64,000 nucleotides of DNA from an uncultured Clostridia bacterium (GCA_947628085.1 CANQYM010000005.1:3919-67918), one strand, 5' to 3'; positions 5,628 through 32,457 are shown, counted from the stretch's first letter. Notes: generated by a model not told the origin, from the sequence alone. Program-made: numbers and translations.

Positions 5628-6440
5628 TTGGGTAAAAAAGGAAAAATTATGGAATTTTTTAAAATACTTTTCAAAAATAGAAAATTAGCAATTAAACTTG
5701 GAAAAAATGATTTTAGAAATAGGTTTGCAAATACAAGCTTAGGAACAGTATGGGGATTTGCACAGCCTTTTGTATTTATGATTACATATGTAATTGTATT
5801 TCAATATATTTTAAAATCTGGAAGCAGTGGAGAATATCCTTATGTTGTTTGGTTTTTACCAGGAATGTCTATGTGGATGTTTTGCAGTGATGCAATTTTA
5901 ACTTCAAGTAATTCAATTAGAAATTATAGCTATTTAGTTAAAAAAGTTGTCTTTCCAGTAGACATTATTCCTGTAATATCACTTACTTCTGCTAGTTTTA
6001 TTGGTATATTTTTAATTACAATTGCAGTAGTTGTTGCATCATTATTTGGATATGTACCAAACTTTATTAATGTTATCTATATACTATTTTGTGCAATTTG
6101 TTTCATAATTGCTTTAACAAGATTTACATCGGCTTTAACTACTGTAGTTCCAGACTTTGCACAATTACTTACAATAGTAATTCAATTATGTATGTGGTTT
6201 ACACCAATAATTTGGAACTTAGATTTTATAGCAGGCTCAAAATTGGTTTATTTATTTAAATGTATGCCATTTACTTATTTAGTAGAGGGATTTAGACAAG
6301 CATTTATGGAACACTCAACAATCATTACAGAAAGTAATTTCCTATTTACAATAATCTTTTGGGCTTTAACAATTTTAATTTTCTTTTGGGGAAATAAAGT
6401 ATTTAAGAAAACAAAAAAAGATTTTGCAGATGTTTTATAA
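5628..6440 (+). CDS. wzm: ABC-2 type polysaccharide/teichoic-acid export permease (Wzm/TagG family)
   Basis: It carries the conserved N-terminal motif DFRNRFANTSLGTVWGFAQP of Wzm/TagG permeases and six TM helices. The likelier start is the ATG at 5649 (MEFFK…), which has an AAGGAAAA RBS. Confidence 0.85.
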   Translation: MGKKGKIMEFFKILFKNRKLAIKLGKNDFRNRFANTSLGTVWGFAQPFVFMITYVIVFQYILKSGSSGEYPYVVWFLPGMSMWMFCSDAILTSSNSIRNYSYLVKKVVFPVDIIPVISLTSASFIGIFLITIAVVVASLFGYVPNFINVIYILFCAICFIIALTRFTSALTTVVPDFAQLLTIVIQLCMWFTPIIWNLDFIAGSKLVYLFKCMPFTYLVEGFRQAFMEHSTIITESNFLFTIIFWALTILIFFWGNKVFKKTKKDFADVL

Positions 6441-6463
6441 AAAAGAATTAAGAGAGGATATAA

Positions 6464-7438
6464 ATGGAAAATACAAATGTAGATATTTTGCTTGCTACAT
6501 ATAATGGAGAAAAATATTTAAAACCACAGCTAGACAGTATTTTATCTCAAAGTTATTCTAATTTTAGATTACTTATATCAGATGATGGTTCAACAGATAA
6601 AACAAAAAGCATTTTAGAAGAATATAGCAAAAAAGATAATAGAATTGTTTTGTTTTTTCAAAAAGAAAATTTAGGAATAATAAAAAATTTTGAATTTTTA
6701 CTAAAAAAAGTAGAAGCAAAATATTATATGTTTTCAGACCAAGATGACATTTGGAAAGAAAACAAAATAGAAAAATCAATTAAAACTTTAGAAGAAACTG
6801 AAAGCGATTTAGTTTATTCTGATCTAGAAGTCGTTGATGAAAATTTAAAAGTAATTTATGAATCTTATTGGAAACTAAAAGGAATTTATAAAAAAATCAA
6901 AAAATACAATAATTTCAAAAGCTTATACTTAAATAATTTTGTCACTGGTTGTACAATGCTTTCAAAAAAAGATTTAATAAATAAATTTTTACCACTTCCA
7001 AAAACTAGTAAATATGTGCTTCATGATTATTGGATTCCATTAATACTTAGTCAAACAGGAAAAATAACCTACATAGAGGAACCTTTAATAAAATATAGAC
7101 AACATAAAAATAATAAAATAGGTTCTAAAAAAAGGTCTGATGAAATAAAAACTTTAGATGAAATAAGAGCTTTATTTATAGATGTGAAAAAACAACATTT
7201 TAAAACTTTTATTGAAAATGAAGATAAATTTATAGATGAAAATGTTAAAACATTAAATAAGAAAGCCTTAACATATTATGAAATGCTAGAGAAAAAGAAA
7301 AATATTAATTTTAGAAATTGGGTATTATTTTTTAAACTTTACAAATATGAAGAATTTGGCTACACAGTGCAAAACTTTTTAATTTTAAACATTCCAATTT
7401 TAGCAAGATTTTTATTTAAATTTAAGAAAAAATCATAA
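6464..7438 (+). CDS. family 2 glycosyltransferase
   Basis: The GT-A N-terminus reads ILLATYNGEKYL…SDDGSTDKT, with a DxD-like SDQDD. The protein is 324 aa. Confidence 0.8.
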   Translation: MENTNVDILLATYNGEKYLKPQLDSILSQSYSNFRLLISDDGSTDKTKSILEEYSKKDNRIVLFFQKENLGIIKNFEFLLKKVEAKYYMFSDQDDIWKENKIEKSIKTLEETESDLVYSDLEVVDENLKVIYESYWKLKGIYKKIKKYNNFKSLYLNNFVTGCTMLSKKDLINKFLPLPKTSKYVLHDYWIPLILSQTGKITYIEEPLIKYRQHKNNKIGSKKRSDEIKTLDEIRALFIDVKKQHFKTFIENEDKFIDENVKTLNKKALTYYEMLEKKKNINFRNWVLFFKLYKYEEFGYTVQNFLILNIPILARFLFKFKKKS

Positions 7439-7479
7439 TATAAAGTGATGATAAAAACAAATAAAAGGAAATATAAATA

Positions 7480-8778
7480 ATGAGTGATACAGTAATTAAA
7501 ATTTCTAATTTAGTAAAAGAATATAAAATGTTTTCAAGGAAAAAAGATAGACTACTTGAGGCAATTCTACCATTTTACACAAAACATACAACATTTAAAG
7601 CATTAGATAATTTAAATTTGGAAATAAAAAAAGGTGAAGTTTTAGGAATTTTAGGAAAAAATGGGGCAGGAAAATCTACTCTTTTGAAAATGATTACAGG
7701 AGTTGTTTCACCAACCGCTGGAGAAATAGAAGTAAATGGAAAAATAAGTTCACTTCTAGAACTTGGAGCAGCTTTTAACCCAGATTTAACAGGATATGAA
7801 AATATATATCAACATGGACAAGTTATGGGTTTATCAGATGAAGAAATTAAAGCAAAAGAAAAGGAAATAATTGATTTTGCAGATATTGGAGAGCACTTAT
7901 CTCAACCAGTAAAAACATATTCATCAGGTATGTTTGCTCGTTTAGCATTTGCTTGTGCAATTAATGTTGATCCAGATATCTTAATTGTAGATGAAGTTCT
8001 ATCTGTTGGAGATATGGCATTTCAACTTAAATGTTTTAAAAAGTTCGAACAATTTAAAAATAATGGAAAAACAATAATATTTGTAACTCATAATATAAAT
8101 GATGTTATGACAAACTGCAACAGAGTTATTATTTTAGAAAATGGTAGAAAAACTTTTGATGGAACTGTAAAAGATGGAATTGATAGATATAAAAAAATAA
8201 TTGTTGGCTTAAACCCAGATGAAAACATTAAAAATGAAAATGAAGAAATAATAATTTCAAACACAGAAACAATTTCAAATGAGAATAATTTAAATACTTG
8301 GAAAAAGGACTTCAATCAAAATCCAAATATGATTGAATATGGAAATAGAGAAGCAGAAGTTATAGACTATGGAGTTTTTGATAAAGATGGAAATCCGGCA
8401 AATATATTTGACAATGGAGATTATATAACTTTTAAATCTAAAGTAAAGTTCAATAAACAAGTTAAAGAGCCAATTTTTACAGTAACCTTAAAAGACTTTA
8501 GTGGAAAAGATGTTACAGGAACAAATTCAAATATAGAAAAAATTGCAACAGGAACATTTGAAAAAGGAGATATAGCTATTGCAGAGTTTACACAAAAAGT
8601 GCCAGTAGCGCCAGGAAAATATACACTTTCTTTTAGCTGTACAAAATATAATGCAAGAGGTTCTTTAGAAGCTTTAGATAGAAAATATGATGCTTTACTT
8701 GTTGAAGTTATTACAACTAAAAGTACAGTTGGATTAATTAGATTAGATTCAAAAATAAATATAAAAAAAATAAATTAA
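7480..8778 (+). CDS. wzt: ABC transporter ATP-binding protein (Wzt/TagH family) with C-terminal glycan-binding extension
   Basis: Walker A (GKNGAGKST), the ABC signature (YSSGMFARLAFA) and Walker B (ILIVDE) are all present. About 190 extra C-terminal residues form a beta-rich domain like the carbohydrate-binding modules of Wzt proteins. Confidence 0.85.
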   Translation: MSDTVIKISNLVKEYKMFSRKKDRLLEAILPFYTKHTTFKALDNLNLEIKKGEVLGILGKNGAGKSTLLKMITGVVSPTAGEIEVNGKISSLLELGAAFNPDLTGYENIYQHGQVMGLSDEEIKAKEKEIIDFADIGEHLSQPVKTYSSGMFARLAFACAINVDPDILIVDEVLSVGDMAFQLKCFKKFEQFKNNGKTIIFVTHNINDVMTNCNRVIILENGRKTFDGTVKDGIDRYKKIIVGLNPDENIKNENEEIIISNTETISNENNLNTWKKDFNQNPNMIEYGNREAEVIDYGVFDKDGNPANIFDNGDYITFKSKVKFNKQVKEPIFTVTLKDFSGKDVTGTNSNIEKIATGTFEKGDIAIAEFTQKVPVAPGKYTLSFSCTKYNARGSLEALDRKYDALLVEVITTKSTVGLIRLDSKINIKKIN

Positions 8779-8846
8779 AGAACATAAGGAATACTTAAAA
8801 TTTAAATTTATAAAGGAGCTATGTAATTTTACATAGATAATATTAA

Positions 8847-11800
8847 ATGGAAGATATCTTATCACAATTTGAAAAAAATATAATTTCTTGGTATCCAATA
8901 GAAAAAAATAAAAAAGTTCTAGAAATTGAAAATTCTGAAGAAATAGTAAATGAATTAAAGACAAAAACTTCAGAAATTAAATCAATATCTCTAGAACAAA
9001 TTTGTGATGCACCTGAAAACGATTTTGACTATGTTGTTTTAATAGGTACTTTTGAAAAGTTGAGTAGTAAAGAAGAAATTTTAAATTTATTAAATTTTGC
9101 TAAAAAAAGTTTAAATAAAGATGGAAAAATTCTTCTAGCTATGAAAAATAAATTCGGTATGAAATATTGGACTGGAGAAAGTATTAACAAAGAAAAACCA
9201 TATTTATCAATAGTGTCAGATAAAGAAAACATATTAGGATTAACGAAAATAAAAAACATTTTAAATGATTTAAATTTAAAATTTAAAATTTATTATGCAC
9301 TTCCTGACTATAAATTAACAAATGTTATTTTTACAGATGATTTTATGCCAGATAATGAGAGTATTGATGCAAGAGATTTAAGTTTTGTAGATAAAGAAAA
9401 TGCTTTAAATTTCTCAGAAAGAGATGCTTATAAACAAATATTAAAAGATGACAAAAATTTATTTCCTTTTTTTGCAAATTCATTTTTTATTGAAATTGGA
9501 AATGCTGAAAACTTTGAAGATGTGAAATTTGTTAGTTTTGGGATTACTAGAAAAAAAGAATATAGAATAAAAACAATTATAAAGAATGATTATGTTTATA
9601 AATATGCAAACGATAACGATTTAACACATATAAATAACATTTTTAAAAATATTGATATATTAAGAAAAAATAATATAGAAGTTCTTGGAGAATTTAAAAA
9701 TGACGGAATAGAGAGTATATTTTTAAAACAAGCAAAATCTCTTGATAAAGTTTTAATGGAAATTTATTTTAGAGAAGGATTAGAAAAAACCATTAAAAGT
9801 ATCGAAGAATTTAGAGAAAAGGTATTAAATAAATTATTAAATGAAAAACTAGATGGAAAAGACATATTTGAAAAATATGAAATTAAATTTCCTTTAGAAT
9901 TAAAAGAAAAAATGCATTTTACTAAAAATGGAATGCTAGACCTAATTTTTCAAAATTGCTTGATAAAAGATAATATTCTATATGCTTATGATCAAGAATG
10001 GTATGAGCAAAATGTTCCAGTAGAATTTATATTATATAGAGCTATAATTTATTTTACTGAACTAAGAAATAATGAGAACATAGATAAAATATTTGAATTA
10101 TTAAATTTAAATGAATATGTAGAGTATTTTGAAGTTTTAGAAAATAAAATTCAAGAAGACTTAGTAGATCAAGACATGTGGAATCTTCATCTAGAAACTG
10201 TTAGAGAAATAGGAAATACTAGAGAAATTTTGGATAATTATAAAAAGAGATTATCTTCTGCAAATACTCATATACAAAACTTAGAAAACAATATTAAACA
10301 ATATGAAGAACATATTGAAAACTATAAAAGCGGAATAGAAGGCTTAACGAAACTTGTTAAAGATAAAGATGAAGAACTTGTAAATTACGCAAATCAATTA
10401 AGAGCAATATCTAACTCACTTTCTTGGAAAATAACAAAACCTGTAAGAATCTTTTCATGGATGTTTAATCCTTTTAATGGTGCAACATTTATTGATAGAA
10501 TAATGCCACCTGGTGGAAAAAGAAGAATAGAATATGATAAAAAACAAACAGAAAAGAAATATGCTAAAAAAGTTGAAAATTACTATAAACTATCAGATGA
10601 AGAAACAGCAGAATATTGGAAAGGAATTGATCACAGAAAATATTTAAAATATGAAAAAAATCTTGAAAGAGAAGAAAAAGATCAATTTTCTGATTATGAA
10701 AAATGGATAAAAGAAAATACACCAAGTGACCAAGAAATTGAAAAACAAGAAAAAACAAAATTTAGAAGAAGACCAAAAATAAGCATTGTAGTGCCACTTT
10801 ATAACACAAATACAGAATTTTTTAGAGAATTATTATATACAGTACATTGTCAAACATACAAAAATTGGGAATTATGTCTGGCAGATGGAAGTGAAGAACC
10901 ATTAGAAGAAATTATATCAATGACTAAGAATGATAAAAGAATAAAATATAAATTTTTAGGCGAAAATAAAGGAATTTCTGAAAATACAAATGAAGCAATA
11001 AAAATGGCTACAGGAAAATACATTTCACTTCTAGACCATGATGATATGCTTGATATAAGTGCTTTGTATGAAGTGGTAAAAGTAATAAATGAAAACAAGA
11101 ATGTAGATTTTATATATACAGACGAAGATAAATTTCATTTCTTAGATGCACCATATTATGAACCACATTTTAAACCAGACTTTGCACCAGACACTCTAAG
11201 AGCAAATAATTATATTTGTCATTATAGTGTATTTAAAAAAGAATTAATAGATAAAATAGGTGGATTTAATCACGATTTTGATGGAGCTCAAGATTTTGAT
11301 ATGATTTTAAGAGCAACAGAAAATGCAAAAAATATTGTTCACATTCCTAAAGTATTATATCATTGGAGAGTTCATAAAAATTCTACTGCAATGCAAACAG
11401 AGGCAAAACCGTATGCAATAGAGGCAGGAAGAAGGGCTATAGAAGCACATTTAGCAAGAATAGGTTTAAAGGGAGAAGTAACAAATGGAGTAAATCCTGG
11501 TACTTATCAAATAAAATATGATGTGATTGGAAATCCAAAAATTTCTATTCTTATGCCAAATAAAGATGAAGTAGAAACTTTGAAAACTTGTATAAACTCT
11601 ATTTTTAGTAAAACAACTTATAGCAATTATGAAATTATAATAATAGAAAATAATAGTGAAACAGATGAAATTTTTGATTATTATAAAGAACTATTAAAAT
11701 CTAATAAAATAAAAATTTTAAACTATAATACTGGAAAGTTTATAGAAAATGAAAAAGAGTGCAGTAAAGAATATTCTAAAGAAAATGAAAGAGAAGGGTT

Positions 11801-21210: not shown

Positions 21211-22108
21211 AAAAGTTGCGGTTATAATGTCAACATATAATGGAGAAAAATATGTAGCAGAACAGCTTGATTCTATTATAAATCAAACATATAAAAACAT
21301 AGAAATAATTGTTAGAGATGATGGTTCTACAGATAGTACAGTAAATATTATAAAAAATTATCAAAAAACTTACGAAAATATTAAATTATATGAAGGCGAA
21401 AATATAGGTTTTATTAAAAGCTTTTTTGAACTTCTTAAAACAACTGAGGCAGATTATTATGCTTATGCGGATCAAGATGATGTGTGGATGGAGAATAAAA
21501 TAGAACTTGCAGTAGACTTATTAGATGAATTAGATGATTCTAAACCTAATATGGCTTTTGGAAATTCAGATTATTATGATGAAAATATGAAACTAATTTC
21601 AAAAGGTCCTAAAAATAGAAAATTTTCATTTCTAACAGCACTATTTGCTTGTGTAACTCAAGGAATGACAATGACTGTAAATAAAACAACTAGAGATATG
21701 ATAATAGAAAATACCCCCAGATCTTGTTTCTTCCATGATTGGTGGACATATCTTTTATGTATTGGACTTGGAAATGTAGCATATAGTAATGAAACAGTTG
21801 TAAAATATAGAAGAAGAAAAGAAAACGCAACATCAGAAGGTCAAGGATATATAAGATTATTAATTTGGAGAATAAAAAATCTTTTATTTAAAGATGGAAT
21901 GAGAGATATTAAACAACAAATGATAAACTTTAAAGACTATTATTATTATCAATTATCAGATGAAAATAAAAAAATTCTAGATTTATTTTCAGAAGAAGAC
22001 TATTCTTTTTCTAATGCTTGTAAAAAAGCTTTTTATAGAGCCAGAATTAGAACAAATATAATAGATGATTTGATGATAAGAATAATATTTTTAATAGGAG
22101 TTTTATAA
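21200..22108 (+). CDS. family 2 glycosyltransferase
   Basis: VAVIMSTYNGEKYVAEQLDSIINQT…RDDGSTDST…DQDD. The protein is 302 aa and is similar to the GT2 at 6464. Confidence 0.8.
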   Translation: MKDKKVAVIMSTYNGEKYVAEQLDSIINQTYKNIEIIVRDDGSTDSTVNIIKNYQKTYENIKLYEGENIGFIKSFFELLKTTEADYYAYADQDDVWMENKIELAVDLLDELDDSKPNMAFGNSDYYDENMKLISKGPKNRKFSFLTALFACVTQGMTMTVNKTTRDMIIENTPRSCFFHDWWTYLLCIGLGNVAYSNETVVKYRRRKENATSEGQGYIRLLIWRIKNLLFKDGMRDIKQQMINFKDYYYYQLSDENKKILDLFSEEDYSFSNACKKAFYRARIRTNIIDDLMIRIIFLIGVL

Positions 22109-23367
22109 TGAATTCAGAAAAAAAGGCTTTTTTGAAAAATTTTATTTGGAATAGTTTAGGTACAGGAATAAACTCTTTTAATTCATTATTTTTCTTAATA
22201 ATTGTAACAAGAGTAAATGATATTCAAACAGCTGGAATATTTTCAATAGCTTATGCAACAGCAACAATTCTTTACACTTTAGCTATGTATTCTGGCAGAC
22301 TTTGCCAAGTAACAGATATAGAAAATAAAATAAAAGATAAAGATTATATTGCAAACAGAGCACTTACTTGTTTCATAATGATAATAGGTGCAACAATTTT
22401 TTTGTGTTTAAAAAGATATTCGGGATTTAAAACTACAATTTTTGCATTACTTGCAATTTTTAAAGGACTAGAAGCTTTTTCAGATATTCTTTATGGTGTA
22501 ATGCAAAAAAATGATATTTTATATAAATCCGGACAATCTTTGTGTTTAAAAGGTTTCATAGGAATAATTCTATTTTTAATTGTAGATTTAGTAACAAGAG
22601 ATTTAAGACTTGCTTGTTTAGCTGTAATTATTGTAAATGTTGCAGTATTAATTATATATGATTATATTTTAATAACAAGAAAACTTATAGATAATAGTAG
22701 TAGAATAAATTATAAAAATGTTTTATCAATATTAAAAAGCGAATTTTTTGTATTTGTAAATTCTTTTGCAGGAATATATATTTTAAATGCCCCTAAATAT
22801 GCAATAGACAATTTTTTAACAGAGGACATTCAAGCGATATATGGTTACATAATGATGCCAGCTACTGTAATGACTTTATTCACACAATTCATAGTAATGC
22901 CTTTTTTAGGCAAAATGAAAGATATGTATGAGAAAAAAGATTTAAAACAACTAGAAGATGTTACTTTTAAAATAAAATTAGTTGTTATTGCATTTGGAGC
23001 TTTTGCAGTTTTAGCAGCATTCTTATTAGGACCAGAATTTTTAGGATTAATATATGGTTTAGATTTAACAGCATACAGAATGAACTTATGTGTAATAATT
23101 GGATCATATATATTCTATGCAATTTCATATATAAATTTAGTAACTTTAACAACAATAAGACATACATTTGTACAGTTTGTAATTTATGTTATTTCAATGG
23201 TTATAGCTTTCACTGGTTCAAATGTTTTAGTTAGAGTTTTAAACTTAGGAATAAATGGTGCAACTTTTTCATGCACAACAACACTTGCAATACAATTTAT
23301 AATGTATACAACAGTTACAAAAATAATTATTCACAAAGAAAATAAAAAATTAGAAGAGCAAAAATAA
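22108..23367 (+). CDS. Wzx-like oligosaccharide flippase (MOP superfamily)
   Basis: The 419-aa protein has 12 TM helices and an N-terminus typical of polysaccharide biosynthesis/Wzx proteins. The start overlaps the upstream stop (ATAATG). Confidence 0.65.
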   Translation: MNSEKKAFLKNFIWNSLGTGINSFNSLFFLIIVTRVNDIQTAGIFSIAYATATILYTLAMYSGRLCQVTDIENKIKDKDYIANRALTCFIMIIGATIFLCLKRYSGFKTTIFALLAIFKGLEAFSDILYGVMQKNDILYKSGQSLCLKGFIGIILFLIVDLVTRDLRLACLAVIIVNVAVLIIYDYILITRKLIDNSSRINYKNVLSILKSEFFVFVNSFAGIYILNAPKYAIDNFLTEDIQAIYGYIMMPATVMTLFTQFIVMPFLGKMKDMYEKKDLKQLEDVTFKIKLVVIAFGAFAVLAAFLLGPEFLGLIYGLDLTAYRMNLCVIIGSYIFYAISYINLVTLTTIRHTFVQFVIYVISMVIAFTGSNVLVRVLNLGINGATFSCTTTLAIQFIMYTTVTKIIIHKENKKLEEQK

Positions 23368-23431: not shown

Positions 23432-25615
23432 ATGGAGATTTTATACATAATAACATTAATATTACTTGGAATAAGTTTTATGATGTTTAAAAAATCAGAA
23501 GAAAAAATAAACTTCATTAAATGGCTAATAATTTATATTGTTTCACTATTTGGATACAATGTTTTTATTGGAATGCTTTTAGGCTTACTTAACATTACAT
23601 CACATTTATGGCTTTTATCAATTATAAACATAGCTTTTGCAATTCTTTTAGGATTTAAAGCTATAAAAAATAAAGATTTTCAAAAATATTATGTAAGAAA
23701 ATTAGATATAATTTCTATCATTTTTGTTTTAGTGATTTTTGCAGTAATGTTTGTAAAAGATTTATATATCTTTAATGGAGATATATCTCATATGGCAATG
23801 GATTCAGCTATACATTATAGAGCTGCAAAACATTATGCAGACAATTTAAAAATATTTATAAATGTAGAAGACAAAACATTTTTCAATTTTAATGTAATGC
23901 AAACAGGTGCATACATAAATGATGGAATTTTCATGAATGTAATACATGGAATTACTGGAATAGGTCATGAGTATTTGTTTCAAGCATTTGAAACAATGGT
24001 GCTATTTTTAAGCGGACTTTCATTTTATGCATTCTTTGGTGAAAGAATTAAAACTAAACGAGGATTAGTAGCAAGTTTAGTATTATTTGCTTTATATATA
24101 TATGGATATCCATATAATTCTTGGTTTTATGGATTTTCATATTTATCAGTTGGAATAATGATGGTAGCAATTTTGTTACCAATTACTGAATGCTTATATT
24201 CAGAAGAGAAAATTACAAAAAAATTAACAATACCTTTAATTGTTTTGGCAGGAACAGGATTAATTTTCTCATATTGTTTATTTGTGCCAGCAGTTTTTTC
24301 TGCAATATGCATTTACTGTTTCTTAAAAGATATTACTTCAAAAGAAGGAAAAAAATATTTAAAGTTTTTCAAGAAAACAACTTTAATTGTAACTGGGCTA
24401 CTTTTACTAGTTACAGCTGTTGGAATTGGTTACATAGTTGTTCCAACATTCTTTATAGAGGGACAAACCAAATTAACTGAAGCTATAAAACTTGAAGGAG
24501 CAATATATTCTGGAACTTATGAAAACTTAATTCCATATACACCATTTTTAGTTTTATTCTTGGTACAATTAGTAAAAAGAATAAAAAATAAAAGCCTAAG
24601 ATTTTTAGATGTTTTTTCTGTTTTTATAATGGGATATTTAGCACTTCTAATGTTAGGAGTACAATATAATTTAGCATCAAAATACTATATGTATAAAGTA
24701 TATTTTATAATGTGGCTAGTTACATTTAGCATAACAATAGATTACATAAATGAAAATGTAGATAAGAAAATATTTAGAATTGATGCAATAATCATATTTA
24801 TGATATATGTTTTCTTTACAACAAAAGCTATCGCAGTTATAACAAACATTAACATATCAAATCCAGGCAAATATTCAATGAACGATTTATACAATATGTT
24901 TATTGAAAATCTATTTACAATACATGATTTATTAATGTTTTTATTGCTTGCATTTTTCACTGTTTTGCCTCAATTAATAGATAAAATTAATTTAAGTAAA
25001 ATAACAGAAAAATTATCAAGCAAATTTAAATCTGAAAAAATTAAAAATTTATTAAATAAAATATCTGTAATAGAAATTAAAAGAATATGCATATCTGGAT
25101 ATATTTATGTAATTCTTTGGGGCGTATTTGTTTGCGGTTGGGTTTGGTTAAAAGCAGGATTAATAATAAGTGAAGATACAAAACATAATTTGCCAAATCT
25201 TGTTGGAATTTATTATGAAGAAAACTGTAACAACAGAAAATTAGTAGATTTAACTCAAAATCTTAATTCAAATCAAATTAAATTAATTAAATATGCAAGA
25301 GAAAACTTTAAAGATATGACAGTTGAAAATACAGAACTTATGACAAAAGGATACTATCCTAGAGTTTGGTCAACAGCAATGCTAGAATTTTCAAGTGAAA
25401 AAGTTAGATATGAAAATGTTATTCAAGATACAAACATCTATACTTTAAAAGATGCTTTAGAGGACAGTGAGAAAAAATATATAGTAAAATTAGTTTCTAG
25501 AGATGCAAATGATTTAAAAGAATATCAAGAGGAATTAAAAGATGTAAAACAAACAGAAAATGTTGAAATACTTTTAGAGAACGAAAACGGTTATGTAGCT
25601 AAGATTAATAGATAA
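23432..25615 (+). CDS. large polytopic membrane protein with C-terminal soluble domain (uncharacterised, GT-C-like candidate)
   Basis: The 727-aa protein has about 13 TM helices and a roughly 170-aa C-terminal domain. It is paralogous to the next gene (MQTGAYIN, YPYxSxxYGFSYLSV). Both share a first-loop D[SA][AS][IM]HY motif. Confidence 0.4.
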   Translation: MEILYIITLILLGISFMMFKKSEEKINFIKWLIIYIVSLFGYNVFIGMLLGLLNITSHLWLLSIINIAFAILLGFKAIKNKDFQKYYVRKLDIISIIFVLVIFAVMFVKDLYIFNGDISHMAMDSAIHYRAAKHYADNLKIFINVEDKTFFNFNVMQTGAYINDGIFMNVIHGITGIGHEYLFQAFETMVLFLSGLSFYAFFGERIKTKRGLVASLVLFALYIYGYPYNSWFYGFSYLSVGIMMVAILLPITECLYSEEKITKKLTIPLIVLAGTGLIFSYCLFVPAVFSAICIYCFLKDITSKEGKKYLKFFKKTTLIVTGLLLLVTAVGIGYIVVPTFFIEGQTKLTEAIKLEGAIYSGTYENLIPYTPFLVLFLVQLVKRIKNKSLRFLDVFSVFIMGYLALLMLGVQYNLASKYYMYKVYFIMWLVTFSITIDYINENVDKKIFRIDAIIIFMIYVFFTTKAIAVITNINISNPGKYSMNDLYNMFIENLFTIHDLLMFLLLAFFTVLPQLIDKINLSKITEKLSSKFKSEKIKNLLNKISVIEIKRICISGYIYVILWGVFVCGWVWLKAGLIISEDTKHNLPNLVGIYYEENCNNRKLVDLTQNLNSNQIKLIKYARENFKDMTVENTELMTKGYYPRVWSTAMLEFSSEKVRYENVIQDTNIYTLKDALEDSEKKYIVKLVSRDANDLKEYQEELKDVKQTENVEILLENENGYVAKINR

Positions 25616-25668
25616 AATATTTTATAGATTTTTCAAAAATCTAAATTAAATTTAAGGAAGAAAATAAA

Positions 25669-27507
25669 ATGGGAATTTTTTATGCCTTAACAGTTTTGGT
25701 AATGCTTGTTATTTTTGTAATTGTAAAGAAAAGTGACAAGAGATTAAATTTAGTAAGTTGGATTATATTATCTTTAATTTCTTATTTAGGATTTAATATT
25801 TTAGTATGCATGGTATTTGGAGCCATGAATATTACAACAAACTTACTATTCTTATCAATAAGTAATTTAGTTGTAGCTTTAGGACTTGGATTTAAAATAT
25901 TTAAAGATAAAAAAATTCAAAAATTTGAAATAAGAAAAAGAGATTTTATAGCAGTTATAGTTGCTTGTGCTATTGTTTGTTATATGGCAGTTAATCAATA
26001 TAAACCTCTTGCAAAAACGATGGCAAATGCTTCTGTGGATGCTAGTATGCATTATAGTGCAACAATAAATTTTGCAAACAATATGAAAATTTTATCTAAA
26101 ATAGATAATCAAACTGGTTATAACTTTAAAACTATGCAAACAGGTGCATACATAAATACAGGAATTTTTATAAGTATGGTAAGAAGTATTCTTCCAAACT
26201 TTAGAGATTATGTAACATTTAAAATTTTTGAAATGGGAATATTGCTTCTTAACATATTGGCATTTTATATGCTAATATCAGACAAACTAGAAACAAAAGG
26301 AAATTTTGTATTTGGTATATTATTTTTAATTTTATATGGATTTGCATATCCATATACTAGTTTATTATATGGATTTTCATATTTAAGTGTAGCAATTGCT
26401 TTTGCAACAGGATTATTTTACTTAGCAAAAATTTATGATAACCGAAAAGTTAATTTTCCAACAATGCTAAGTTTAATAATACTTATGGGAGTTGGAATAA
26501 TCTTTTCATATTGTTTATTTGTTCCAGCACTATTTGCATTTATTTGTATATATGTATTTTTAAAAGACAAGAAAAAAGAAGAAAAATCTTATTTAAAATT
26601 TTTCAAAAAATCAACTCTTTTAGTTACAGGACTACTTTTAATTGTAACAGCTTTAGCAATATGTTATTTAGTAATTCCAACATTTACAGATAGTGATCAA
26701 AATAAATTAACAGATGCAATTGGATTTGTTGGTGGAAGCTATAAGTCTTTATATCAAGATTTCTTGTTTTATATACCTTTTGTAGTTTTATTTATATATA
26801 AATCTATAAAAAATAAAGATTTAAATTTTCAAGTAGTAGCATTAGCATTACTTGTATTTCAAACAGTTATAACATTTTTAGGATTAGTAAATGGAATAGT
26901 ATCAAGCTACTATTACTATAAAATTTATTATATAATTTGGATTTTATTAGCAGATATTGCTGTTGAAGTTCTATGCAGCATGAAAGATAATAAAGAATTA
27001 GGAGTAGTTTTAAAAACAGCAACAGTAATATGGGTTTGCATAATTTGTTTTGCAATTGGCGGATATGAAGAAAAATTATATGCTAAAAATCCTACAATAA
27101 TGGATACACCAGCAGAACTAAGACTTTCAAAATTAGCTGGAATTTACTATGATACAAATATTTTTGGCATAAAAAATATTAATGCTTCTTGTTTAGTAAA
27201 TCAATACAGGCTTGAGCTTGCAGAACAAATGGGAAAACAGGAAGATATGACACTAAAAAATATGTTAGTTGGTGGAATGAATACTAATTGCAAAGCTTGG
27301 ATGTATGTTGTTTCTGGAATTACATCAGGCGGTGAATCAATAAATGATTTGCAAGTTGCAGTTGTAGAAACTAATGTAGATGATTGGATGAAAAAAGAGG
27401 ATAAAAAATATTTTGTTCTATATGATGAGTCAAATACTTATGAAAATACTGATGATTATGAAGTAGTTTTCAGTAATAGTGCAGGAGTTATTTTAAAGAA
27501 GAAATAA
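25669..27507 (+). CDS. paralogous polytopic membrane protein with C-terminal soluble domain (uncharacterised)
   Basis: The 612-aa protein is about 35-40% identical to the preceding gene across the TM region and has the same domain order. Confidence 0.4.
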   Translation: MGIFYALTVLVMLVIFVIVKKSDKRLNLVSWIILSLISYLGFNILVCMVFGAMNITTNLLFLSISNLVVALGLGFKIFKDKKIQKFEIRKRDFIAVIVACAIVCYMAVNQYKPLAKTMANASVDASMHYSATINFANNMKILSKIDNQTGYNFKTMQTGAYINTGIFISMVRSILPNFRDYVTFKIFEMGILLLNILAFYMLISDKLETKGNFVFGILFLILYGFAYPYTSLLYGFSYLSVAIAFATGLFYLAKIYDNRKVNFPTMLSLIILMGVGIIFSYCLFVPALFAFICIYVFLKDKKKEEKSYLKFFKKSTLLVTGLLLIVTALAICYLVIPTFTDSDQNKLTDAIGFVGGSYKSLYQDFLFYIPFVVLFIYKSIKNKDLNFQVVALALLVFQTVITFLGLVNGIVSSYYYYKIYYIIWILLADIAVEVLCSMKDNKELGVVLKTATVIWVCIICFAIGGYEEKLYAKNPTIMDTPAELRLSKLAGIYYDTNIFGIKNINASCLVNQYRLELAEQMGKQEDMTLKNMLVGGMNTNCKAWMYVVSGITSGGESINDLQVAVVETNVDDWMKKEDKKYFVLYDESNTYENTDDYEVVFSNSAGVILKKK

Positions 27508-27512
27508 TTATA

Positions 27513-28430
27513 TTGCAAATTAAATTTATAGGAGAAAAAATGAAAGTTGCGGCAATAGTAGTAAACTATAATGATGTAGAAGATACAGAAAACTATATAA
27601 AAAATATATCTAATTATAAAGCTATTGATAGAATATTAGTCGTAGATAATATGTCTACGACTGAAAATGCTTTTTCTAGATTAAAAAGTTTAGAAGGAAA
27701 TAATAAAGTAAAAGTTATTCAATCTGAAAAAAATGGTGGATATAATTATGGAAACAATTTTGGAATAAAATATTTAGAAGACCTAAACGAAAAATATGAC
27801 TATTATATTATTTCAAATCCAGATATAGAAATTACTGAAGAAACAATAAAAAAATGTTTAGAAGAAATTCAAAAAGATGAGAAAATTGCTGTTATTGCAC
27901 CAAGAATGTTTAATAAAGAAAATAAACCAATAAGAAGAAGTAGTTGGAAAATAAGAACATTTTGGCTAGATGTAGTTCATTCTACAAGAATATTAGAACT
28001 TCTTTTTTATAAAGTATTAAGAAATGGAGAATATTCAAATAAAGAATATGAACAAGAAAAACTAGAAGTAGAAGCAATTTCAGGAGCATTTTTTATAATA
28101 AGAAGTAATGTTATAAAAGAAATTGGATTTTTTGATGAAAACACATTTTTATTTTATGAAGAAGATATTTTAGCAAAAAAATTATTAAAAGAAAATTTAA
28201 AAACTATTTGCTTAACTAAAGAAAAATTTATTCATTATGAGAGTCAAACTATTGGAAAAACATTTAGCTACTATAAAAAAATGTTACAAATGTATAAAAG
28301 TAAAATGTATTATCACAAAACGTATAACAATATAAATATAATTCAAAAATTTGTTTTTTTACTGTTATTTTTAGTAAGAAACATTGAGCTGATTATTGAA
28401 ATTCCAATGAGAAAAATATTAAAAAAATAA
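27513..28430 (+). CDS. family 2 glycosyltransferase
   Basis: KVAAIVVNYNDVEDT…VVDNMST is a GT2 motif. The more probable start is 27540 (MKVAAIV), which has a GGAGAAAAA RBS. Confidence 0.8.
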   Translation: MQIKFIGEKMKVAAIVVNYNDVEDTENYIKNISNYKAIDRILVVDNMSTTENAFSRLKSLEGNNKVKVIQSEKNGGYNYGNNFGIKYLEDLNEKYDYYIISNPDIEITEETIKKCLEEIQKDEKIAVIAPRMFNKENKPIRRSSWKIRTFWLDVVHSTRILELLFYKVLRNGEYSNKEYEQEKLEVEAISGAFFIIRSNVIKEIGFFDENTFLFYEEDILAKKLLKENLKTICLTKEKFIHYESQTIGKTFSYYKKMLQMYKSKMYYHKTYNNINIIQKFVFLLLFLVRNIELIIEIPMRKILKK

Positions 28431-28433
28431 AAT

Positions 28434-28498
28434 TCAAAAGAGTAATTTATAATAAAAATATATATTAAATTTTAATTATAAGATTGCTCTTTTTTTTG
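28434..28498 (+). terminator. putative rho-independent terminator at the 3' end of the glycan locus
   Basis: An imperfect long hairpin (AAAAGAGUAAUUUAUAAU…AUUAUAAGAUUGCUCUUUU, with G-U pairs) is followed by T8. Confidence 0.45.
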
Positions 28499-28590
28499 TG
28501 TATTTCAAAGCATTACATTTATGTTAAAAGTTTATAAAAAATATTGTAAAAATATACTTTATGTGATATAACAATCGCATATAAGTATAC

Positions 28591-29637
28591 TTGGGGGAAC
28601 TATTGAGAAAAAATATTAAAAACTACGATTTAAATGATTTAAAAGAAGAATTAATTCTTTTAAATGAAAAACCATTTAGAGCAGAACAAATTTTTAAATG
28701 GCTATATAGTGAAAAAGTAAATTCTTTTAATGAAATGACAAATTTATCTTTAGAGCTTAGAAAAAAATTAGAAGAAAATTATTCTTTAGGATTATTTAAA
28801 ATCGAAAAAAAATTAGAATCTGTAGATGGCACAAAAAAATATTTATTTGATTTGCAAGATGAAGAAAAAAACCTAATTGAAAGCGTTTTAATGAGCTATC
28901 ATCATGGATATACAGCTTGTGTATCAAGTCAAATAGGATGCAAAATGGGATGCAAGTTTTGTGCTTCAACAGGAATACCATTTTCAAGAAATCTAGAATC
29001 CGGAGAAATTATTGAGCAAATATTAGAAATTGAAAAAGAAGAAAATATTAAAATTTCTAATATTGTATTTATGGGAATTGGAGAACCTCTAGATAATTAT
29101 GAAAATGTTATGAATGCTATAAAAATAATAAATAATCCAAAAGGGTTAAATATAGGTGCAAGACACATTAGTATTTCAACAAGTGGTTTAGTACCAAAAA
29201 TATACGATTTAGCAGATAGGCAAATTCAATGTACATTATCTGTTTCACTACATAGTAGTAATAATAAAACAAGAAGTGAAATGATGCCAGTAAATAATTC
29301 CTATCCAATAGAAGAATTAATGAAAGCTTGCAAATACTATATAGAAAAAACAAATAAAAGAATTTCTTTTGAATATGCTTTAGCAAAAGATAATAACGAT
29401 AACTTAGAAGATGCAAAAGAGCTTGTAAAATTGCTACACGGAATGCTTGCACATGTGAATTTAATTCCAATAAATAAAATAGAAGATGGAAAATATACCA
29501 AAAGTACTAATGAAAATATAATTAAATTTAGAGATTACCTTAATGATCATGGAATAGTAGCTACTATTAGACGAGAACTAGGTTCTGATATATCTGCTGC
29601 TTGTGGTCAATTGAGAAAGCAGAACTTGAAAGAGTAA
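28591..29637 (+). CDS. rlmN: 23S rRNA (adenine2503-C2)/tRNA methyltransferase, radical SAM
   Basis: It has the radical-SAM motif CKMGCKFCAST and end-to-end RlmN similarity. The start is TTG at 28591 or 28603. Confidence 0.9.
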   Translation: MGELLRKNIKNYDLNDLKEELILLNEKPFRAEQIFKWLYSEKVNSFNEMTNLSLELRKKLEENYSLGLFKIEKKLESVDGTKKYLFDLQDEEKNLIESVLMSYHHGYTACVSSQIGCKMGCKFCASTGIPFSRNLESGEIIEQILEIEKEENIKISNIVFMGIGEPLDNYENVMNAIKIINNPKGLNIGARHISISTSGLVPKIYDLADRQIQCTLSVSLHSSNNKTRSEMMPVNNSYPIEELMKACKYYIEKTNKRISFEYALAKDNNDNLEDAKELVKLLHGMLAHVNLIPINKIEDGKYTKSTNENIIKFRDYLNDHGIVATIRRELGSDISAACGQLRKQNLKE

Positions 29638-29650
29638 AGAGGTGAGGTAA

Positions 29651-30412
29651 GTGAGAATTTTGGCAAAGTCTGATATAGGCAAAGCTAGAGATATGAATCA
29701 AGATTTCTATTATGTATCAGATTTAGAAAAAGACGAATTAAAATTATATATTCTAGCAGATGGTATGGGAGGTTACAAAGGCGGAGAAATAGCAAGTTCT
29801 CTAGCTGTAACAAATGCAAAAAATTATATTAAAAATCATTTTAATAAAACTAAAAAAGATAGAGAAAGCATATTAAAATTATTAAGATATGCTATAGAAT
29901 ATGCTAATATGACTGTACACGATAAGTCACAAGAATCAGAAGACTTAAAAGATATGGGTACTACTTTAGATATCTGTTTAATATATAATAATAAAGTATT
30001 TATAGGTCATGTTGGCGATAGTAGAGTTTATAGAATTCGTAAAAATATAATTAGAAAACTTACAACAGATCATAGCTATGTTGAAAAATTATTAAAAGAA
30101 GGCACAATATCTAAAGAGGAAGCCTTTAATCATCCAAAGAAAAATATGTTAATGAAAGCTTTAGGTTGTAGCTCACTTGTTGAACCTGATGTTATTTGTA
30201 AGGGATTTTTGAAAGATGATATTCTACTTATGTGTTCAGATGGTTTAACAAACATGCTAAAAGAAAGCGAAATATATAATCTTTTATTAAATAACCCAGA
30301 ACATCCGGAAGAAGCTTTAATAAACAATGCAAATGAATTAGGTGGATACGATAATATAACAGCAATTATTATAGACAATATAGATGTTAGCGAAGAAACT
30401 AAGGAGAGATAA
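29651..30412 (+). CDS. stp: PP2C-family Ser/Thr protein phosphatase
   Basis: The protein has PP2C motifs (ADGMGG, DGLTNM) and a GTG start, and lies directly upstream of prkC in the conserved operon order. Confidence 0.9.
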   Translation: MRILAKSDIGKARDMNQDFYYVSDLEKDELKLYILADGMGGYKGGEIASSLAVTNAKNYIKNHFNKTKKDRESILKLLRYAIEYANMTVHDKSQESEDLKDMGTTLDICLIYNNKVFIGHVGDSRVYRIRKNIIRKLTTDHSYVEKLLKEGTISKEEAFNHPKKNMLMKALGCSSLVEPDVICKGFLKDDILLMCSDGLTNMLKESEIYNLLLNNPEHPEEALINNANELGGYDNITAIIIDNIDVSEETKER

Positions 30413-30414
30413 TT

Positions 30415-32457
30415 ATGAATCTTATTGGAAAAATGTTGAATAACAGATATGAGGTTTTAGAAAAAATTGGAAATGGTGGTATGGCAACTGTTTATAAAGC
30501 TAAGTGCCATGTACTAAATAGATATGTTGCTATTAAAATATTAAAAGATGAGTTTACAACAGATAGTGATTTTATAAAGAAATTTAATACAGAAGCTCAA
30601 TCAGCAGCCAGACTTACACATCCAAATATAGTTCAAATTTATGATGTTTGTAATGAAGATAACTTATACTATATTGTAATGGAACTTATACAAGGTAAAA
30701 CATTAAAAGAAATAATAACAGAAGATGGTATTCTTTCTTGGAAATGGTCTGTAAACATTGCAATGCAAATTGCATCAGCACTAGAAACAGCACACAAAAA
30801 CAACATCATACATAGAGATATAAAACCACACAATATAATAATAACAGAAGATGGTATTGCAAAAGTAACAGACTTTGGTATAGCAAAGGCAGTATCAAAC
30901 TCTACTATAACAGCTTTTGGAACAACAATAGGTTCAGTTCACTATTTCTCTCCAGAGCATGCTAGAGGTGGATACACAGATGCAAAATCAGACTTATATT
31001 CTTTAGGAATTGTAATGTATGAAATGCTTACAGGAAAAGTTCCTTTTGATGCAGATACACCAGTGTCTGTTGCATTAAAACAAGTTCAAGAAGAACCAGT
31101 AGATCCTATGAATTATAATCCTAATATACCAATAAGTGTAAATAGAATTATATTAAAAGCAATGCAAAAGGATCCAAACTTTAGATATCAAAATGCAACA
31201 GAAATGCTTAAAGATTTATCATTAGCATTAAAGAAACCAGATGAAGATTTCGTTATTTTAGCTACAAGAAGTGATGATTCACCTACACAAAAAGTTCCTA
31301 CAATATATGAACTTGAAATGGAAAAAAATAATGATAGAAAAGCTCCAAAAATGGGAGAAAATGCTACAACCAAAAAAGAAAATAAAATTAAAGCATTCTA
31401 TTCAAAACATAAATGGGCAAAGCCAGTAACAATTGTTTTAATATCTATACTTGCATTTGTTATTGCAATGTATTCAACAATAGCAATTTTAAATGGAACT
31501 AGACCAAATCAAGTAGAAATTCCAAACGTTTCTGGAGCACAAAATGCTGAAAGAATAAAAAAAGATGAAGCAATTAGTCTTTTAAATAGTTTAGGATTTA
31601 AAGATATTACAGTTGAAGAAGAATATAGTGATGATGTAGAAGAGGGATATGTAATTTCACAATCTCCAGAATATCAAGAAAATTATAAATTTAATTTAAC
31701 ACAAAAAATAAAATTAGTAGTTAGTAAAGGTCAAAAAACAGAAAACTTACCAAAGAAAATCATAGGTAGAGACATTGAAGATGTAAAAAAAGAACTTGAT
31801 GAATTAGAATTAAAATATGAAATAAAAGAAGAAACAAGTGAAAAAGTTGAAAAAGGAATTGTACTTAATGTAGATCCAGAAGAAGGAGAACAAGTAACTG
31901 CAACAACTCTAATAAATCTTACTGTTAGTTCAGGAAGCGCATATAAAGATGTAGTTGTACCTAGCGTTTTAAATGAAACACAAGAAAACGCTGTAAATAG
32001 ATTATCTGAATTAAAACTAATAGTAAATGTTTCTTATGAAGAAGATGCTTCAAAATCTGACGGAATAGTTGTTTCACAAAGTGTTCCATCAGGAAAAACA
32101 TTAAAAGAAGGAGATACAATAGAAGTTGTTGTAAATAAACAACCAACTAGATCAACTTTAACAGTAAATGTAAACTTAAAGTCTTTAATGGGATATACGG
32201 AACCATCTTCAACTGTTCAAAATACAGCAGATGGTAATACATTTACAACAACTCCAGAAATACCAAAAGCAAATGTTGTAATTACAGTTGGAGAAGATAC
32301 AATTTTAAGTGATGCTTATTCAATGACCAAAACAGATATATCTGCTTCACATACTACTTCTGGAGTAAAAGAAGTAAAAGTTAAAGTAGATGGTGTAACA
32401 AAGTATACTCAAACAGTAGACTTCAATAAAGGAAGCCAAACAATTAATGTTAAATAA
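30415..32457 (+). CDS. prkC: Ser/Thr protein kinase with three PASTA repeats
   Basis: The kinase domain has GNGGMATVYKA, HRDIKPHN and DFGIA motifs, followed by a TM helix and three PASTA-like repeats. The protein is 680 aa. Confidence 0.9.
   Translation: MNLIGKMLNNRYEVLEKIGNGGMATVYKAKCHVLNRYVAIKILKDEFTTDSDFIKKFNTEAQSAARLTHPNIVQIYDVCNEDNLYYIVMELIQGKTLKEIITEDGILSWKWSVNIAMQIASALETAHKNNIIHRDIKPHNIIITEDGIAKVTDFGIAKAVSNSTITAFGTTIGSVHYFSPEHARGGYTDAKSDLYSLGIVMYEMLTGKVPFDADTPVSVALKQVQEEPVDPMNYNPNIPISVNRIILKAMQKDPNFRYQNATEMLKDLSLALKKPDEDFVILATRSDDSPTQKVPTIYELEMEKNNDRKAPKMGENATTKKENKIKAFYSKHKWAKPVTIVLISILAFVIAMYSTIAILNGTRPNQVEIPNVSGAQNAERIKKDEAISLLNSLGFKDITVEEEYSDDVEEGYVISQSPEYQENYKFNLTQKIKLVVSKGQKTENLPKKIIGRDIEDVKKELDELELKYEIKEETSEKVEKGIVLNVDPEEGEQVTATTLINLTVSSGSAYKDVVVPSVLNETQENAVNRLSELKLIVNVSYEEDASKSDGIVVSQSVPSGKTLKEGDTIEVVVNKQPTRSTLTVNVNLKSLMGYTEPSSTVQNTADGNTFTTTPEIPKANVVITVGEDTILSDAYSMTKTDISASHTTSGVKEVKVKVDGVTKYTQTVDFNKGSQTINVK

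Follow-up and report, generated by a model that had tools for sequence, protein, structure and literature searches.

Two adjacent genes in the genome of an uncultured Clostridia bacterium raise the question of what large membrane proteins that belong to no named family may be doing next to a polysaccharide locus. The window analysed here, that is, the whole stretch of 64,000 nucleotides (GCA_947628085.1 CANQYM010000005.1:3919-67918), has a G+C content of about 25%, carries nearly all of its genes on the + strand, and is about 97% identical at the protein level to one contig of a rabbit-gut metagenome-assembled genome (MAG). The two genes, referred to here as A and B, had been singled out in an earlier note, made from the sequence alone, as coding for paralogous polytopic proteins and as candidates for novel GT-C-type extracytoplasmic glycosyltransferases. 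The analysis described below leads to a similar answer. Judging from the modelled fold, the conserved residues and the genomic context, A and B are probably, though by no means certainly, two diverged copies of an undescribed family of GT-C-fold membrane glycosyltransferases that would decorate a cell-wall glycopolymer from a lipid-linked sugar.

The two open reading frames (ORFs) were found on the + strand exactly where the earlier note had placed them (Table 1). In the N-terminal 392 amino acids A and B share 43% identity (BLASTP, E 6e-101), their C-terminal parts give a weak match (20% identity, E 2e-4), and the profiles of the A-orthologs and the B-orthologs can be aligned with hhalign over 603 columns at a probability of 100%. 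The BLASTP match and this profile alignment together identify A and B as full-length paralogs. Every sequence block that had been quoted as shared is indeed present in both proteins, namely the motif that starts at residue 124 in each of them (DSAIHY in A, DASMHY in B), MQTGAYIN[DT]GIF at 156, YPY[NT]S at 226/227, YGFSYLSV, CLFVPA at 282 and YLKFFKK[ST]TL[IL]VTGLL at about 309.

At the structural level, the AlphaFold2 model of A, obtained with an alignment of 29 sequences, has a mean predicted local distance difference test score (pLDDT) of 82.9 and a predicted template modelling score (pTM) of 0.82. The outcome that the earlier note had itself set against its proposal, a transporter-like fold devoid of a GT-C core, was looked for by comparing this model with the PDB using Foldseek; instead, ranks 1 to 17 are all occupied by GT-C glycosyltransferases with probabilities of 0.92-1.00. 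These include the C-mannosyltransferase CeDPY19 (E 6e-4) and ArnT (5f15, E 1.7e-3, target TM-score 0.44), the remaining ones being archaeal AglB, AftA, Pmt4, PglB, AftB and Pmt1/2. The first unrelated fold appears at a probability of 0.35, with the rest below 0.1. Sequence identity between A and its GT-C matches is 8-14%, and the TM-scores against solved GT-C structures are low when normalised to the query (0.24-0.35). A review lists the same structural homologs as HHpred results for Gram-positive GT-C enzymes that have been characterised, several of them likewise without a Pfam domain (PMC8035078). In three dimensions the A model resembles solved GT-C enzymes, one of the features by which the GT-C_A class is recognised, and the GT-C interpretation of A and B is supported at the level of modelled fold and context.

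The topology was deduced from the AlphaFold2 helices and from Lys/Arg counts taken across the whole family under the positive-inside rule, with hydropathy as an additional guide. Instead of the 13 or so transmembrane helices first estimated for both proteins, this procedure gives about 16 in A and about 14 in B, numbers compatible with the roughly 7-13 or more helices of GT-C proteins. The N-terminus is predicted to be outside and to be followed by membrane helices 2-18, 28-52, 59-80 and 90-109, after which comes a large loop (110-178), predicted to face outward, that contains the amphipathic helices 123-138 and 158-175; ten more membrane helices then extend to residue 476. Given an even number of helices and an N-terminus outside, the C-terminal alpha/beta domain is also predicted to be outside. 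In A this domain has no family or structural match of its own in Pfam or Foldseek searches, and acceptor binding is a possible role for it. A soluble C-terminal domain had been anticipated with a size of 150-250 amino acids; the domain does exist, but it comprises about 150 amino acids in both A and B, and neither protein has a larger one. A is longer than B because of the insertion 477-555 and the helix 556-574, and not because of a larger soluble domain. Two extra membrane helices (497-515 and 556-574) result from these segments, as does a cytoplasmic loop rich in Lys, and the insertion is absent from B and from the relatives of about 600 amino acids.

The distribution of conserved residues points to the same face of the membrane. 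The motif D-[SA]-[AS]-[IM]-H-Y, which had been assigned to the first loop, is present and its D124 and H128 are invariant, but the loop that carries it is the first large extracytoplasmic one and follows the fourth transmembrane helix, not the first. Across an alignment of 59 family members that spans 21-61% identity, D124, H128, G234, Y281, G356, Y418 and K422 are invariant (59 of 59), and N163, Y226, P227, F235, Y237, F284, P286, Y359, P371, Y419 and N600 are conserved in at least 90%; all of these residues map to the predicted outer face or to outer helix ends. D124 opens the amphipathic helix 123-138 of the loop, the location where GT-C enzymes hold their catalytic Asp (as summarised in PMC11127046). 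A conserved acidic residue in an extracytoplasmic loop that is followed by juxtamembrane helices, another feature of the GT-C_A class, is predicted here in the modified form D-x3-H. A cluster of strictly invariant polar and aromatic residues on the outer face, maintained in 59 members down to 21% identity, would be typical of an active site, and the Tyr/Tyr/Lys group at 418-422 offers plausible phosphate ligands.

In agreement with the earlier proposal that A and B fall outside any named family, neither protein matches Pfam-A or NCBIfam, even at E 0.1, and the two family profiles find no match among PDB sequences. The named GT-C families PMT_2, YfhO, STT3, Glucos_trans_II, DUF2142, DUF6056/GT_STM0557_N and DUF7657 give no significant profile match to A or B. 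Local hhalign comparison of the family returned probabilities below 1% against the GtrII alignment and of 0.2-17% against DUF6056-like sequences, the value of 17% covering 86 columns around the YPxN region. Features of oligosaccharyltransferases (GT66) are lacking as well, there being no WWD in A or B, no STT3 Pfam match and a C-terminal domain of only about 150 amino acids; the same holds for protein O-mannosyltransferases (GT39), with no DE in loop 1 and no PMT or MIR Pfam match. The dipeptide DE occurs in B only at residue 586, within the C-terminal domain. A word-indexed search retrieved 452 relatives, none of them with a Pfam domain and the few named ones being called 'hypothetical protein', whereas an exhaustive profile search that covered 1.84 billion cluster representatives yielded 724 clusters at 50% identity with E <= 1e-3 (570 with E <= 1e-10), most of them about 600 amino acids long and B-like; the clusters come from Clostridia and Bacilli MAGs of animal guts. 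Among the 59 aligned members, the sole notable Pfam match is that of one protein to PF19528 (E 2e-6). A and B form an undescribed sequence family, placed by its predicted fold inside a well-known superfamily and found in a well-known type of system.

The nature of that system can be read from the genes around them. A and B belong to a cassette with the order gtrA-GtrB-like-GT2-DUF7657-GT2-Wzx-like-A-B-GT2, located downstream of a polysaccharide locus dependent on an ATP-binding cassette (ABC) transporter. The latter encodes four GT2 proteins of up to 1202 amino acids and also GalE (4468-5460, NCBIfam score above cutoff), whose presence hints at Gal or GalNAc as the sugar that the GtrB-like enzyme of the cassette may load, and the product of its Wzm/Wzt pathway is the probable acceptor polymer of the cassette. 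All the cassette genes are co-directional and abut or overlap; no terminator-like sites occur in the intergenic gaps, the two + strand sites falling inside genes, and a promoter scan gave no more matches than shuffled sequence. These scans are compatible with an operon and beyond that uninformative. The order GtrB-GT2-DUF7657-GT2-Wzx-A-B-GT2 is kept in about 30 related genomes, and downstream of it come, without exception, rlmN and the genes for a PP2C phosphatase and a PASTA kinase.

Some of the neighbours are of particular relevance. A and B are putative users of a sugar donor linked to polyprenyl phosphate or diphosphate, and their cassette also contains the GtrB-like, the gtrA-family and the Wzx-like gene. 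The GtrB-type undecaprenyl phosphate (Und-P)-sugar synthase suggested earlier is borne out by NCBIfam matches to AglJ (1.5e-66), to a dolichyl phosphate (Dol-P)-hexose transferase (1.6e-23) and to PpgS (6e-19), and this protein is predicted to be the membrane-linked GT-A enzyme that makes the Und-P-sugar in multi-component glycosylation. The suggestion of a Wzx flippase fared less well. The window protein is intact and matches Pfam Polysacc_synt below the cutoff (E 0.0045, spanning 2-269 of 274), and the profile of the Wzx-like alignment finds nothing among PDB sequences; 11 of 17 orthologs do match Polysacc_synt (best E 4e-5). A, B and the DUF7657 protein are all predicted GT-C proteins encoded together with a predicted Und-P-sugar enzyme and with candidate flippases (the interrupted gtrA-family gene and the Wzx-like gene), an arrangement known from three- or four-component transmembrane glycosylation systems.

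The third of these proteins, with 745 amino acids, had been suspected of being a further GT-C enzyme on account of its RTDEW loop. The motif is present, with R149, R152, D154 and E155 invariant in an R-x-x-R-T-D-E-W loop, and the AlphaFold2 model (pLDDT 73, with low confidence in the RTDEW loop) has exclusively GT-C proteins as its top 7 Foldseek PDB matches: DPY19, yeast and canine STT3, ArnT (target TM-score 0.47-0.48), AftA and ALG12. The profile of the DUF7657 alignment finds no match among PDB sequences. DUF7657/DUF7654 resembles A and B in its cassette, its predicted GT-C fold, its similar length, its C-terminal outer alpha/beta domain and its repeated co-occurrence with them, but it differs in the loop motif and shows no demonstrable sequence homology. 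Such a homology was considered and rejected, local hhalign giving 7% by default and 38% in permissive mode, and the 93% reached in global mode being accompanied by near-zero per-column confidence.

On this basis, a mechanism can be proposed. At the cytoplasmic face, the GtrB-like GT2 would load a sugar onto Und-P, the neighbouring GT2 enzymes may lengthen the lipid-linked sugar, and the Wzx-like and/or the GtrA-like protein would flip it to the outer face. There, A and B would each bind the lipid-phosphate donor in a groove of invariant outward-facing residues (D124, H128, N163, Y226/P227, Y281, G356/Y359 and Y418/Y419/K422), with D124 as the putative catalytic base and Tyr, Lys and His holding the phosphate. 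The glycosyl unit would then be transferred to a cell-wall glycopolymer, most likely the polymer of the upstream Wzm/Wzt pathway, and the C-terminal outer domain of 150 amino acids may help to hold the acceptor. A and B, whose C-terminal outer domains have diverged, might differ in position, linkage or acceptor. The paralogy, the lack of a family name, the predicted GT-C fold, the invariant residues predicted to face outward and the conserved gene order are shown by the data above; that A and B are enzymes, which donor and acceptor they use, what each residue does and which flippase serves them is inferred.

Several observations weigh against this proposal. GT-C enzymes usually carry a DxD, DE or DD motif (PMC8035078), and none of the three is found anywhere in the A sequence, so that the catalytic centre would have to be a single Asp plus His (D-x3-H). 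Moreover, four helices precede the candidate catalytic loop in A and B, as compared with one in canonical GT-C enzymes, which begin with a helix that leads into the catalytic loop. Many family members stand alone amid housekeeping genes (peptidase U32, RNase R, UvrA, rlmN), so that the tie of the family to this polysaccharide locus is not universal, and all its source organisms are uncultured MAGs.

Among the alternatives, the one that survives best keeps the GT-C fold and distributes the tasks as the pellicle pathway of lactococci does. The GtrB-like protein would prime Und-P, three GT2s would build a short oligosaccharide that Wzx flips, one GT-C protein (A, B or DUF7657) would polymerise it, and another would attach the whole chain in one step to the backbone exported by the ABC transporter. 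Oligosaccharide units are the usual cargo of Wzx-type flippases, and GT2+Wzx+GT2+A travel together in distant loci. With one GtrB-like protein, three soluble GT2s, one Wzx-like protein and three GT-C-fold proteins, the composition of the cassette also parallels that of WpsA/B, WpsC-F, WpsG, WpsH and WpsJ (PMC10821137). We nevertheless regard this pathway as unlikely, given that neither a chain-length regulator nor any sign of a polymer has been identified, that the GT2s might just as well work on the backbone of the ABC pathway, that single-copy family members exist without any Wzx or GT2 neighbour, and that GacK is a Wzx-type flippase able to serve a monosaccharide donor (bioRxiv 10.1101/180810).

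A still bolder combination, in which A and B are the first members of a new GT-C family of CAZy type (with an outside N-terminus, three helices added ahead of the catalytic loop, D-x3-H in place of DxD and a C-terminal acceptor domain of its own) and at the same time act, in these gut Clostridia, with DUF7657 in a Wzx-fed, Und-P-primed pathway whose GT-Cs polymerise a side polymer and ligate it onto the ABC-exported backbone, is rather unlikely. To our knowledge, a polymerise-and-ligate pathway of GT-C enzymes onto an ABC-exported backbone has so far been proposed only for lactococci.

It is quite improbable that the acceptors of A and B are proteins instead of polysaccharide, as they are for PMT, DPY19 or oligosaccharyltransferases; Ser/Thr-rich or S-layer/surface proteins would then be the candidate targets. 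The protein-modifying DPY19, AglB, PglB and Pmt1/2/4 are indeed among the top structural matches, but ArnT and AftA/AftB, whose acceptors are lipids or glycans, match equally well, and A and B have no WWD motif and no MIR, STT3 or PMT Pfam match. Protein glycosylation by GtrB plus a GT-C enzyme is reportedly known in streptococci. As to the genomic position, the family adjoins the rlmN-PP2C-PASTA kinase operon even where there is no glycan locus, but a polysaccharide locus is its immediate context in about 30 genomes. Finally, that A and B have a helical bundle like that of GT-C proteins but no enzymatic function, serving instead in structure, as a scaffold or in transport, or that the AlphaFold2 model misleads, might be suggested by the low query-normalised TM-scores, by the lack of a canonical DxD in A and by the lack of any detectable sequence relationship to a named GT-C family, but it is highly improbable in view of 17 top matches from a single superfamily with nothing else above a probability of 0.35, of the invariant polar and aromatic cluster on the outer face, and of a genomic context that is a glycosylation cassette.

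The reading of A and B as GT-C transferases that decorate a glycopolymer also finds its closest worked examples, by analogy, in GacI/J/K/L of group A Streptococcus and in the lactococcal WpsA-J. The Gac genes, downstream of a wall polysaccharide pathway that depends on an ABC transporter, bring together a Wzx-type flippase, a polytopic GT-C protein and an Und-P-sugar synthase of GtrB type, for all of which the cassette has putative counterparts in a similar position, the Wzx-type flippase and the GT-C protein acting on an ABC-exported rhamnan (bioRxiv 10.1101/180810). The likeness extends to a related genome in which an A/B-family member shares its cassette with a DUF2304 (GacJ-like) gene; in that contig (L060; labels such as L004, L024 and L060 denote loci in related genomes) DUF2142, DUF7657, GT2, DUF2304, GT2 and the A/B-family member are consecutive, DUF2304 being the family of GacJ, the helper of the GlcNAc-P-Und (undecaprenyl-phosphate N-acetylglucosamine) synthase GacI (bioRxiv 10.1101/180810). 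The differences are that Pfam recognises a PMT_2 domain in GacL (PMC8035078) but nothing in A and B, and that the cassette has two paralogs and, in addition, the predicted GT-C protein of the DUF7657 family, a gene of the gtrA family and three more GT2s. The lactococcal rhamnan-pellicle system of WpsH/WpsJ (polysaccharide pellicle, PSP) similarly combines several GT-C proteins, a GtrB-like initiator, cytoplasmic glycosyltransferases and a Wzx-like flippase beside an ABC-exported backbone (PMC10821137), but the likeness is one of gene composition, no chain-length regulator has been identified here, and polymerase and ligase roles in the cassette would be speculative.

Other GT-C enzymes occupy the same genomic niche and follow the same three-component logic, as is the case of GtrII (PF14264) and GtrC/STM0557 (PF19528) (PMC11127046, PMC2909390): GtrII or DUF2142 is found in the slot 5' of GtrB, and GT_STM0557_N genes flank other A/B-family members. 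A and B differ from them in having no significant profile homology, a greater length and a C-terminal outer domain. With ArnT (GT83), DPY19, PglB/AglB, PMT and AftA/AftB they share, by prediction, an outward loop in which amphipathic helices and a conserved Asp are found, a bundle of several helices after this loop (for these traits of GT-C enzymes, see PMC11127046), and conserved Tyr/Lys near the outer leaflet that could bind phosphate; they differ from these solved enzymes in three extra N-terminal helices ahead of the loop-leading helix, in an N-terminus predicted outside, in a single Asp plus His (D-x3-H) instead of DxD, DE or DD, and in the absence of WWD and of a MIR domain. A comparable discovery led to the founding of GT136 in 2024, a family whose system uses a MATE-family flippase (PMC11127046). 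With its predicted D-x3-H centre, its three-helix N-terminal extension with the N-terminus outside and its own C-terminal domain, the A/B family would be a reasonable candidate for a new CAZy family, though not for a new mechanism.

Regarding distribution, a scan of GTDB species genomes detected 53 loci, all of them in uncultured Clostridia MAGs from rabbit, sheep, deer, mouse, chicken and human gut, several being Candidatus Scatovivens, and more distant members occur in 'Bacilli bacterium' MAGs. The family associates with components of lipid-linked extracytoplasmic glycosylation. Distant members (L034, L050, L051) keep GT2+Wzx+GT2+A, and third copies (L036/L037/L040/L022/L025/L033, at about 10000-16300) lie beside a DUF6056/GT_STM0557_N gene and an antisense DUF7657 gene amid housekeeping genes. 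DUF6056 is called GT_STM0557_N in newer Pfam, and STM0557 is gtrC of a Salmonella gtr operon (PMC2909390). In other genomes a single copy of about 620 amino acids is flanked by a U32 peptidase gene and rlmN and has no glycan genes in its vicinity. The earlier remark that four putative GT-C enzymes in one locus would be unusual does not hold for this clade, as related loci carry GtrII, DUF2142, DUF6056/GT_STM0557_N and DUF7657, and one contig (L063, 2619-13431) has six consecutive membrane-protein genes of 536-641 amino acids, two of the A/B family, one of GT_STM0557_N and three unannotated.

It was also observed that in about 45 loci (window 27513-32457) the A/B family lies directly 5' of the operon of rlmN, PP2C and a PASTA Ser-Thr kinase, with only the terminal GT2 and sometimes one extra gene between them, a position held even by lone members with no glycan genes nearby. 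This position may be the ancestral site of the family or may reflect a functional link to wall sensing.

The upstream end of the cassette is more variable. The slot 5' of GtrB is occupied by gtrA in some related loci, by GtrII (PF14264) in others, and by a GtrA-DUF2142 fusion in one (L010, L013, L015, L018, L029, L038 and L039 at about 1200-3500, and L032 at 464-2518), which suggests that it is a swap site where cassette exchange would diversify the surface glycan. In the window, this slot holds a gtrA-family gene in which a C inserted at 16524 (context TTT-AGG-C-GGC) leaves a 72-codon ORF and a shifted remainder; in frame 0 the insertion is followed by a rare CGG codon and by a stop at 16536. 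Two further species-level MAGs carry this insertion as well (L004, 2889-3420, and L005, 2928-3450), and in more distant relatives the ORF is uninterrupted and 158-194 codons long, the L024 copy matching Pfam GtrA_DPMS_TM (2.7e-16). Between the window and L005, both with the insertion, the ratio of nonsynonymous to synonymous substitution rates (dN/dS) is 0.16 upstream of it and 0.07 downstream in the shifted frame, where the conserved stretch includes a transmembrane segment located before the first ATG of that frame (at 16663). Because of this low downstream dN/dS and of the conservation of a transmembrane segment ahead of any ATG, the shifted frame appears to be still translated, and the pattern suggests programmed +1 frameshifting at the rare CGG codon, or other recoding, rather than a dead gene.

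Table 1. Positions of A, B, their parts and the surrounding glycosylation genes in the window
Feature	Coordinates	Strand	Description and basis
Upstream ABC-transporter-dependent glycopolymer genes	5628..16277	+	Wzm permease, GT2, Wzt ATPase with Wzt_C domain, three large multi-GT2 proteins; Pfam
gtrA-family flippase gene	16320..16839	+	Split by a one-base insertion (extra C at 16524)
GtrB/DPMS-type GT2	16950..17891	+	Two C-terminal hydrophobic helices; putative polyprenyl-phosphate sugar synthase making the lipid-linked donor
Cytoplasmic GT2	17893..18933	+	Pfam Glycos_transf_2 4e-38; synteny
DUF7657/DUF7654 protein, 745 amino acids	18973..21210	+	Third GT-C-fold protein of the cassette (predicted); Pfam (PF24677, PF24672)
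GT2	21200..22108	+	Accompanies Wzx and A-family genes also in distant loci (L034, L050, L051); Pfam 1.4e-26
Wzx-like (MOP-superfamily) putative flippase	22108..23367	+	Directly 5' of A throughout the cassette synteny
Gene A	23432..25615	+	727 amino acids, polytopic membrane protein, predicted GT-C fold, about 16 membrane helices, C-terminal extracytoplasmic domain
A residues 124-129 (DSAIHY)	23801..23818	+	Candidate catalytic Asp and His; start of amphipathic helix in the first large outward-facing loop (110-178)
A-specific insertion (477-555)	24860..25096	+	AlphaFold2 secondary structure, alignment statistics, family lengths
C-terminal alpha/beta domain of A (575-727)	25154..25612	+	Predicted outside the membrane; AlphaFold2 secondary structure
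Gene B	25669..27507	+	612 amino acids, paralog of A, about 14 membrane helices, C-terminal extracytoplasmic domain, keeps all family-invariant residues
B residues 124-129 (DASMHY)	26038..26055	+	Counterpart of DSAIHY in A
C-terminal domain of B (467-612)	27067..27504	+	Weakly A-like: BLASTP 20%, E 2e-4; hhalign full-length
GT2, rhamnosyl- or galactofuranosyl-transferase-like	27513..28430	+	Last cassette gene; Pfam 8e-12, NCBIfam rhamnosyltran 3e-10; synteny

Outside the cassette, the DDDD loop noticed earlier in a 348-amino-acid protein at 2,586 is present as HIDDDD after the fourth helix. This DUF6077 protein (2586-3632, +) overlaps a Wzy_C-type gene (1270-2589), which is itself 3' of a 415-amino-acid polytopic protein (33-1280), and the three genes may constitute a separate Wzx/Wzy-like module. 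The 415-amino-acid protein (33-1280, +) and another glycan-locus protein of 249 amino acids (3647-4396, +) have no Pfam or NCBIfam match, and no literature was found on DUF7657 or DUF6077. Further downstream, a nonribosomal peptide synthetase is encoded as two overlapping ORFs (52233-54668 and 54589-59691, +) with the organisation C-A followed by T-C-A-T and a terminal reductase; the A domain of the first ORF is cut at profile position 369 of 384, and since the two ORFs overlap, they may be a single gene disrupted by a frameshift or by an assembly error. The product expected of a two-module synthetase with a terminal reductase would be a dipeptide aldehyde or alcohol.

GT-C enzymes are hard to recognise from sequence, and they set the fine structure of bacterial surface glycans, to which phages bind and which the host recognises as antigens. 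A GT-C reading of DUF7657/DUF7654 would give a functional assignment to these Pfam domains of unknown function. In the same way, naming the A/B family as GT-C would improve the annotation of many gut MAGs, would supply a candidate new glycosyltransferase family for glyco-engineering, and would draw attention to a conserved cassette with which an uncultured lineage may decorate its wall polysaccharide.

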